From the NCBI RefSeq assembly GCF_013122565.1, contig NZ_CP053258.1: a stretch of DNA of 64,000 bases; one strand, written 5' to 3'. The position numbers and the translations under genes are program-made. Each line of letters starts with the position of its first letter. Position 1 is the first letter of the stretch. The DNA is from Escherichia coli (lineage in GTDB: Bacteria > Pseudomonadota > Gammaproteobacteria > Enterobacterales > Enterobacteriaceae). Positions 57,752 through 60,143 of this stretch are shown in pieces. Below the pieces are notes generated by a model that ran no database searches, was not told the DNA's origin, and saw nothing but the letters and a program-made list of their open reading frames with translations.

Positions 57752-57779
57752 GGCGGGAAATGCTCCCGCCTTATTTTTT
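57752..57779 (+). terminator. Intrinsic terminator after dksA
   Basis: GGCGGGA-aatgc-TCCCGCC followed by TTATTTTTT, 29 nt after the dksA stop and just before the gluQ ATG. Confidence 0.75.
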
Positions 57780-57789
57780 GTTCAAAGAG

Positions 57790-58686
57790 ATGACAGACAC
57801 ACACTATATTGGCCGCTTCGCCCCCTCTCCTTCCGGCGAGCTTCATTTTGGTTCTCTGATTGCTGCGCTTGGCAGCTATTTGCAGGCTCGCGCCCGGCAA
57901 GGTCGCTGGCTGGTACGCATTGAAGATATCGACCCGCCTCGTGAAGTTCCCGGTGCCGCAGAAACTATCCTGCGCCAGCTGGAACATTACGGTCTGCACT
58001 GGGACGGCGATGTTCTCTGGCAATCGCAACGTCACCACGCCTATCGCGAAGCACTCGCCTGGTTACATAAACAAGGACTAAGTTATTACTGCACCTGCAC
58101 GCGTGCGCGTATTCAAAGCATTGGTGGTATTTACGACGGTCATTGCCGGGAATTGCATCATGGACCAGATAACGCCGCAGTGCGTATCCGCCAGCAGCAT
58201 CCGGTCACCCAGTTTACTGACCAGCTGCGCGGCATTATTCACGCCGAAGAAAAACTGGCGAGGGAAGATTTTATTATTCATCGCCGTGATGGTTTGTTTG
58301 CCTATAACCTGGCGGTGGTGGTGGATGATCACTTCCAGGGCGTGAGCGAAATTGTCCGCGGGGCAGATTTGATCGAACCGACAGTGCGGCAAATCTCGCT
58401 GTACCAGCTTTTTGGCTGGCAAGTGCCAGATTACATTCATCTGCCGCTGGCGCTTAATCCACAAGGCGCTAAACTTTCCAAGCAGAATCATGCGCCTGCG
58501 TTGCCGAAAGGCGATCCACGCCCGGTACTAATCGCGGCACTTCAATTTCTGGGGCAGCAGGCAGAAGCACACTGGCAGGATTTCAGCGTCGAGCAAATCC
58601 TTCAGTCAGCCGTCAAAAACTGGATGCTGACCGCCGTGCCTGAGTCGGCAATTGTAAATTCAACATTCTCAAATGCGTCATGCTGA
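57790..58686 (+). CDS. gluQ: Glutamyl-Q tRNA(Asp) synthetase (GluRS paralog YadB)
   Basis: 298 aa from [22 protein letters not shown]; track ORF starts 10 codons earlier at 57760, inside the dksA terminator hairpin. Confidence 0.8.
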
Positions 58687-58745
58687 GCTATGATTAGCCG
58701 CTATTTTTTTGTCCTGAATGATGTTTGACACTACCGAGGTGTACT

Positions 58746-60143
58746 ATTTTTACCCGAGTCGCTAATTTTTGCCGCAAGGTGCTAAGCCGCGAGGAAAGCG
58801 AGGCTGAACAGGCAGTCGCCCGTCCACAGGTGACGGTGATCCCGCGTGAGCAGCATGCTATTTCCCGCAAAGATATCAGTGAAAATGCCCTGAAGGTAAT
58901 GTACAGGCTCAATAAAGCGGGATACGAAGCCTGGCTGGTTGGCGGCGGCGTGCGCGACCTGTTACTTGGCAAAAAGCCGAAAGATTTTGACGTAACCACT
59001 AACGCCACGCCTGAGCAGGTGCGCAAACTGTTCCGTAACTGCCGCCTGGTGGGTCGCCGTTTCCGTCTGGCTCATGTGATGTTTGGCCCGGAGATTATCG
59101 AAGTTGCGACCTTTCGTGGACACCACGAAGGTAACGTCAGCGACCGCACGACCTCCCAACGTGGGCAAAACGGCATGTTGCTGCGCGATAACATCTTCGG
59201 CTCCATCGAAGAAGACGCCCAGCGCCGCGATTTCACTATCAACAGCCTGTATTACAGCGTAGCGGATTTTACCGTCCGTGATTACGTTGGCGGCATGAAG
59301 GATCTGAAGGACGGCGTTATCCGTCTGATTGGTAACCCGGAAACGCGCTACCGTGAAGATCCGGTACGTATGCTGCGCGCAGTACGTTTTGCCGCCAAAT
59401 TGGGTATGCGCATCAGCCCGGAAACCGCAGAACCGATCCCTCGCCTCGCTACCCTGCTGAACGATATCCCACCGGCACGCCTGTTTGAAGAATCGCTTAA
59501 ACTGCTACAAGCGGGCTACGGTTACGAAACCTATAAGCTGCTGTGTGAATATCATCTGTTCCAGCCGCTGTTCCCGACCATTACCCGCTACTTCACGGAA
59601 AATGGCGACAGCCCGATGGAGCGGATCATTGAACAGGTGCTGAAGAATACCGATACGCGTATCCATAACGATATGCGCGTGAACCCGGCGTTCCTGTTTG
59701 CCGCCATGTTCTGGTACCCACTGCTGGAGACGGCACAGAAGATCGCCCAGGAAAGCGGCCTGACCTATCACGACGCTTTCGCGCTGGCGATGAACGACGT
59801 GCTGGACGAGGCCTGCCGTTCACTGGCAATCCCGAAACGTCTGACGACGTTAACCCGCGATATCTGGCAGTTGCAGTTGCGTATGTCCCGACGTCAGGGT
59901 AAACGCGCATGGAAACTGCTGGAGCATCCTAAGTTCCGTGCGGCTTATGACCTGTTGGCCTTGCGAGCTGAAGTTGAACGTAACGCTGAATTGCAGCGTC
60001 TGGTGAAATGGTGGGGTGAGTTCCAGGTTTCCGCGCCACCAGACCAAAAAGGGATGCTCAACGAGCTGGATGAAGAGCCGTCACCGCGTCGCCGTACTCG
60101 TCGTCCACGCAAACGCGCACCGCGTCGTGAGGGTACCGCATGA
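58746..60143 (+). CDS. pcnB: Poly(A) polymerase I
   Basis: 465 aa if initiated at in-frame ATT ([22 protein letters not shown]...); first in-frame ATG is ~50 codons further in. Confidence 0.85.

Follow-up and report, generated by a model that had tools for sequence, protein, structure and literature searches.

We consider it highly probable that translation of pcnB, the gene for poly(A) polymerase I (PAP I), starts at an AUU codon at positions 58746-58748 of the window (the whole stretch of 64,000 nucleotides of Escherichia coli DNA that was analyzed), that this codon is placed by a strong Shine-Dalgarno (SD) sequence, and that the inefficient start keeps PAP I scarce and gives a product of 465 amino acids. 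The AUU start of pcnB is already known, having been published in 2002, and it is already annotated. Its use in vivo and its limiting effect on expression are taken here from the literature, that is, from Binns and Masters (2002) through the papers that cite it. Our own analysis supplies the anatomy and annotation of the start, the conservation of the ATT codon and of its SD sequence, the point at which coding constraint begins, and the absence of an alternative conserved start.

The pcnB gene and its candidate start codons

The pcnB coding sequence occupies positions 58746-60143 of the + strand (465 codons and the stop; the features described below lie on this strand unless stated otherwise), and the gene order in the window is sfsA-dksA-gluQRS-pcnB-folK. 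The gene was identified by its RefSeq annotation, by a protein family model and by the identity of its product with that of strain K-12. The RefSeq annotation, made by PGAP, begins the CDS exactly at ATT 58746 and gives the 465-amino-acid protein WP_010723084.1. In the closest genome and in K-12 MG1655, the RefSeq pcnB start was found at locus position 1947, which maps to 58746 of the window. When translated from ATT, the window PcnB showed no amino acid difference from K-12 PcnB, and from this identity with the characterised enzyme we infer that it would add poly(A) without a template. The PcnB equivalog model of NCBIfam, NF008634, gave 997.1 bits (cut-off 702), covered residues 1-464 and was aligned from residue 1; the TIGR01942 model gave 523 bits (cut-off 305.65), and the protein was under the cut-off for all models of the homologous CCA-adding enzymes. 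The domain architecture, precomputed for the 100%-identical 465-amino-acid cluster P0002, was PF01743 + PF12627 + PF12626 (PolyA_pol, PolyA_pol_RNAbd and PolyA_pol_arg_C). The orthologous context dksA-gluQRS-pcnB-folK was found around the window pcnB, and the same order was present in the distant loci L085 and L087. Over 1 kb around the start site, 5,424 of 5,426 complete E. coli genomes matched the window with 95-99.4% identity.

The reading frame was then analyzed codon by codon. Direct reading confirmed an in-frame TGA at 58719-58721 as the stop after which the pcnB frame opens; the frame ends at the stop codon TGA at 60141-60143. The in-frame candidate starts are, in order, TTG 58725, the near-cognate ATT 58746, GTG 58779, GTG 58830, GTG 58836 and ATG 58899. 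The protein would have 472 amino acids if read from TTG (58725-58727) and has 465 if read from ATT, the length that a preliminary description of this DNA had given for the ATT start. That description was also correct in placing the TTG in frame at 58725 and the first ATG about 59 codons into the frame: ATG 58899-58901 (Met52) is codon 59 counted from TTG and codon 52 counted from ATT. Two of its statements had to be amended. It placed a GTG at 58782, which is the next codon, CTA; the GTG, encoding Val12, lies at 58779-58781, and a protein started there would have 454 amino acids. It also took the TTG, this GTG and the ATG to be the sole canonical in-frame starts, and missed GTG 58830 and GTG 58836, which both precede the first ATG.

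The SD sequence of pcnB is GAGGTG at 58736-58741; ATT begins 4 nt past this hexamer and 6 nt past its GAGG core. The energy of the duplex with the 3' end of 16S rRNA was -9.8 kcal/mol for ATT, -2.3 kcal/mol for TTG 58725, -0.1 kcal/mol for GTG 58779 and -4.0 kcal/mol for ATG 58899. When compared with random positions in the window, the value for ATT ranked in the top 2.5%, and it was stronger than that of neighbouring dksA (-9.2 kcal/mol). Over the 80 species described below, the energy at ATT averaged -9.7 kcal/mol, and the same pattern, with a strong SD at ATT and not at TTG or GTG 58779, was seen in all of them. The weak SD that the preliminary description had expected upstream of 58746 was thus not borne out, and the primary sequence does not show the "poor ribosome-binding site" with which pcnB is described in PMC3561954 and PMC9764084. 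Since the SD is strong, the throttle would be the AUU codon itself and not the sequence of the ribosome-binding site.

The choice of start codon has consequences for the databases. A protein homologue search (relatives of at least 86% identity) showed that PcnB versions of 472, 454 and 447 amino acids coexist with the correct 465-amino-acid form, because gene callers accept only ATG, GTG or TTG. The practical point is therefore one of annotation, as wrong-length PcnB entries stand beside the correct form.

The neighbouring sequence was also examined. The folK start ATG (60140-60142) overlaps the pcnB stop codon as ATGA, which is the usual arrangement for translational coupling. The upstream gene gluQRS ends with the stop codon TGA at 58684-58686. 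For its start (region 57760-57792), the mechanical ORF begins at ATG 57760 (308 amino acids) and the RefSeq CDS at ATG 57790 (298 amino acids); the RefSeq start is preceded by hardly any SD (-1.7 kcal/mol), and 8 of 78 species have a codon other than ATG at the aligned start position. Within gluQRS, 17 differences from K-12 were counted in the 83 nt of 58305-58387 (about 20%), and zero differences in 58642-59077; judged by its nucleotide differences, the gluQRS patch looks like a mosaic or recombined segment. A mechanical ORF on the antisense strand, 58694-59026, was without support.

Conservation of the start and alternative start sites

The start region was compared among 80 Enterobacteriaceae species, with one genome for each species and 86-100% PcnB identity; these were 80 of the 452 pcnB relatives in the species-representative scan. 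The alignment of PcnB N-termini across the family, which had been proposed as a check on the AUU start, placed ATT at the homologous codon in all 80 species, and over all the loci aligned ATT was present at this codon in 82 of 82. The sequence GAGGTG was found in 80 of 80 species, and variation was confined to the 4-nt spacer between it and the ATT. The upstream in-frame stop ranged from 5 to 59 codons before ATT. Between ATT and the GTG at codon +11, only five alignment columns were variable; all five were third positions, and all the changes were synonymous. The probability that five variable columns would all be third positions by chance, without a reading frame, is (1/3)^5 = 0.004. The codon directly before ATT varied non-synonymously, encoding T, I, P, A or N depending on the species, and the amino acids were invariant over codons 0-12 in the 80 species. 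Protein-coding constraint begins at ATT.

Within E. coli, the 80-nt block 58716-58795 was 100% identical in 5,413 of 5,424 complete genomes, and the kilobase flanking it differs by 2-3% from most E. coli genomes. One variant of the block was inspected and showed a change at 58787. An otherwise identical block with ATG or ATC in place of ATT was found in 0 of the 5,424 genomes. With 5,413 genomes carrying the identical block, the start sequence is not an error, and the idea that a corrected sequence would reveal a hidden in-frame ATG upstream was ruled out.

The start was also followed into more distant relatives. The sequence of Candidatus Erwinia haradaeae (L084, 62% identity) is TGAGGTG-tcct-ATT, with GTC at codon +11, and that of L085 (GCA_014218195.1, 67% identity) is CGAGGTG-tacc-ATT, followed by the changed residues F-S-Q-I-A-N-F-C-R-K. 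The metagenomic locus L086 (55% identity) has GAGGA-N7-ATT ATT ACA AAA GTC, with TTA at codon +11. In L087 (54% identity, with the gene order unchanged), an in-frame TAG precedes CTG GGA CGG ACC ACT ATC AGA CGC GTT; its motif, read from ATC, is I-R-R-V-I-E-L-C-K-K-V-I, no ATG, GTG or TTG is present between the in-frame TAG and this motif, and the codon aligned with Val12 is GTC. The comparison as a whole adds modest data to what was known, namely that neither ATT nor its SD varies among the 80 species and that ATT or ATC persists down to about 54% protein identity.

A search among 50% representatives showed that Met-initiated distant PcnB proteins share a short basic motif with a hydrophobic pattern (MNTIITFIKKLL, MLIIKKLFKKIF, MLQFLKKVF and MINQFIRRIL), and that their Met aligns 0-4 residues from the ATT position. 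Because the motif recurs in these homologues, the peptide encoded between ATT and GTG 58779 is a real and ancient part of PcnB. We annotated 58746-58796 as a conserved basic N-terminal peptide, which is followed by a variable linker (about codons 17-27). Over 58746-58826, residues 1-17 make up the conserved basic motif, and the linker of residues 18-27 is highly variable. The PcnB structures 3AQK-3AQN span residues 28-442 and are uninformative on the N-terminus because their crystal constructs start only at residue 28.

Two relatives had peculiarities of their own. The PcnB of Thorsellia kenyensis (L088, 62% identity; 1201-1500 of the locus) lacks the conserved N-terminal motif and carries instead about 75 residues of low-complexity extension, with GTG as the annotated start; with its different, long N-terminal extension it was set aside as a lineage-specific exception and not used as a guide to the E. 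coli start. In L085 (1501-2998 of the locus), the annotation splits pcnB into two parts, of 316 and 150 amino acids, which would reflect either a frameshifted pseudogene or an assembly error; the upper part is annotated as starting at a TTG further upstream and reads through the SD and the ATT.

A start at the downstream GTG 58779 would turn the conserved stretch between ATT and GTG into an untranslated leader. All 80 Enterobacteriaceae species have GTG at this codon, many database entries take it as the start and give a protein of 454 amino acids, and the reported mature N-terminus adjoins it: according to PMC9764084, a 17-residue N-terminal leader of PcnB is cleaved post-translationally, and because of this cleavage the N-terminus of the purified protein would lie near GTG 58779 and would not display the AUU start. 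However, the GTG has no SD in any species (about -0.1 kcal/mol), and the 10 codons before it vary only at synonymous third positions in the 80 species, as expected of translated sequence. In the distant relatives, these upstream codons show conservative replacements (R/K, V/I and F/L), whereas the GTG itself has become GTC in L084 and L087 and TTA in L086. The motif upstream of the GTG is the one found in distant Met-initiated homologues, and the publications assign the start to AUU and not to this GTG (PMC2939334, 10.1101/063800, PMC3561954). We regard translation from GTG 58779 as very improbable. Translation from the upstream TTG 58725, an older view that is still repeated in some introductions, is scarcely credible. 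The TTG is the first canonical codon past the in-frame stop, PcnB versions of 472 amino acids exist in databases, and the introduction of PMC3561954 names UUG, but the discussion of the same paper and all the other papers name AUU. In addition to its lack of an SD (-2.3 kcal/mol), a canonical codon is present at its position (-7) in only 28 of 80 species (TTG in 26 and ATG in 2 more), in 43 of the 80 the frame contains no canonical start codon from the upstream stop to ATT, and some species have in-frame stops only 5-6 codons before ATT. The "codons" between TTG and ATT also include the SD, and the last of them, codon -1, is the one that varies non-synonymously.

A different proposal is that transcripts of the internal sigma-S promoter pS1 give an extra, shorter isoform from ATG 58899, as a second product beside the AUU product. 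According to PMC2939334, pS1 works in vitro and, when conditions are special, also in vivo, and anti-PAP I western blots show two bands, but the authors of that paper themselves term the isoform unproven. A second dip in synonymous variation (H3 0.39) was seen at 58866-58895 (codons 40-49), in the region of the published pS1 and just upstream of the ATG. However, only 23 of 80 species have ATG at this codon, its SD is weak (-4.0 kcal/mol), and the product would lose residues 28-51 of the crystallised core. ATG 58899 is reportedly the start proposed by Liu and Parkinson in 1989. We consider this isoform improbable and, if it is made, minor at most; AUU 58746 is the start that we prefer.

The putative upstream promoter and the near-invariant initiation block

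A sigma-70-like promoter match, TTCTCA-17-TATGAT, was found at 58666-58694, where it straddles the end of gluQRS. It was the sole promoter-like site found in 58300-59000, and it probably corresponds to pB, the major pcnB promoter of the literature, which PMC2939334 locates upstream of the pcnB ATT. The block GAGCTATGATTAGCCGCTATTTTTTTGTCC (58684-58715), with the -10-like TATGAT right after the gluQRS stop, was conserved in most genera and was replaced by unrelated sequence (...CATAGAGTA...) in Salmonella, Klebsiella, Raoultella, and some Citrobacter and Kluyvera. On sequence comparison, this replacement suggests that the promoter has turned over upstream of an initiation region that is itself invariant.

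The initiation region itself, 58736-58781 (about 46 nt, from the SD through codon 12), was near-invariant in the 80 species, synonymous sites included. The mean third-position entropy of codons 0-9 was 0.15 bits in the 80 species, as against about 1.0 bits in the rest of pcnB. In the same loci, the first ten codons gave 1.10 bits for gluQRS and 1.14 bits for folK; dksA was frozen throughout, which is expected because it is highly expressed. The rare Arg codon CGA at pcnB codon 3 was invariant in the 80 species.

We also analyzed the predicted RNA structure of this region. A small, speculative hairpin was predicted at 58735-58756, in which the SD (C.G-GGUG) pairs with codons 2-3 (UACCCG) and the AUU lies in a 9-nt loop, with an energy of -4.5 kcal/mol. 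It was present in both the MFE structure (RNAfold) and the RNAalifold consensus, and the SD bases were paired with a probability of at least 0.95. RNAalifold gave 0 compensatory pairs in the hairpin over the 80 species, because every pair is invariant. The 112-nt region folded worse than its shuffles (z = +1.29). The hairpin partner was lost in L085, other folds were predicted for L084-L087, and the hairpin was not preserved in L085-L087. A search of the region against Rfam on both strands gave no family matches. On these four results, that is, the covariation count, the z score, the loss in relatives and the Rfam search, the SD hairpin was rejected as an established feature. The predicted hairpin might explain why pcnB is said to have a "poor ribosome-binding site" despite its strong SD. 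It is conceivable, though unlikely, that the block 58736-58781 is a conserved translational operator, either an SD-sequestering hairpin or a protein or sRNA site, which makes PAP I synthesis regulated. If that were true, PAP I synthesis would not simply be low but would be under regulation, with growth rate or IF3 as examples of the signal, and the wording of the literature would be reconciled with an SD that is strong on paper. We record the frozen block as an unexplained local constraint on the initiation region and not as a finding.

AUU initiation of pcnB and comparison with known systems

The sequence properties of an AUU-initiated gene were found in pcnB: no canonical start is present at its conserved N-terminus, AUU or AUC is present there, an SD stands at functional spacing, and the arrangement is conserved across species. 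The suggestion in the preliminary description that the locus fits the published AUU initiation, which limits translation of the gene, is supported by the RefSeq start, by the citing literature and by the comparative tests. PMC2939334, 10.1101/063800, PMC3561954 and PMC5499595 cite Binns and Masters 2002 (Mol Microbiol 44:1287) as the source for the statement that the AUU start limits how much PAP I is made, and the citing papers, including PMC9764084, give as its result AUU initiation of pcnB and higher expression when AUU is changed to AUG. The 64-codon study (10.1101/063800) names infC and pcnB as the only confirmed AUU starts in E. coli, and found that, in reporters, initiation from near-cognate codons such as AUU reaches 1-2% of that from AUG. 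According to PMC3561954, phylogenetic evidence for AUU in many Proteobacteria had been reported previously, a cell contains about 30-50 molecules of PAP I, and overproduction of the enzyme is toxic. Our literature search for initiation-site profiling (retapamulin, ribosome profiling) or N-terminal proteomics of E. coli pcnB returned nothing usable. The biology was settled in 2002: a weak start keeps the toxic RNA-tailing enzyme PAP I low.

IF3 discriminates against AUU initiation complexes, and this general property is the basis of the role proposed here for IF3 at pcnB. The sigma-70 promoter at the end of gluQRS would make a short pcnB leader, on which the strong GAGGUG SD (58736-58741) would set the 30S subunit on AUU 58746. 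The initiator tRNA would pair imperfectly with AUU, and IF3 would reject most such complexes. The output of pcnB would be low and would be expected to track IF3 activity. The product would have 465 amino acids, of which the first 17 or so would form the conserved basic N-terminal peptide. PAP I would thus be scarce, despite an adequate promoter and SD, because AUU is poorly read by the initiator tRNA and is discriminated against by IF3.

The window pcnB was compared with E. coli K-12 pcnB, Enterococcus faecalis ebpA and infC. K-12 pcnB encodes the same protein, with 0 amino acid differences, and has the same 80 nt at the start, the same synteny and the same annotated ATT. The two do not differ in the start region, and only 15 synonymous substitutions deeper in pcnB and the divergent patch in gluQRS distinguish them. 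According to PMC4447247, ebpA of E. faecalis also has a rare ATT start that attenuates expression, and the gene was likewise mis-annotated from a downstream ATG; however, its product, a pilus tip adhesin, is unrelated to PcnB, and the host is Gram-positive. The infC gene, which encodes IF3, resembles pcnB in that its AUU start is preceded by an SD and conserved across species, and in that IF3 discrimination limits expression (PMC5499595). The same paper reports that IF3 discriminates against and represses AUU mRNAs, and that this is general for AUU mRNAs in vitro. Unlike PcnB, the product of infC is the very factor that discriminates, so that the AUU or AUC start is autoregulated by IF3 in a closed feedback loop. 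PAP I has no known effect on the initiation of its own synthesis, and therefore the AUU of pcnB would be a throttle, one that should make PAP I synthesis sensitive to IF3 activity.
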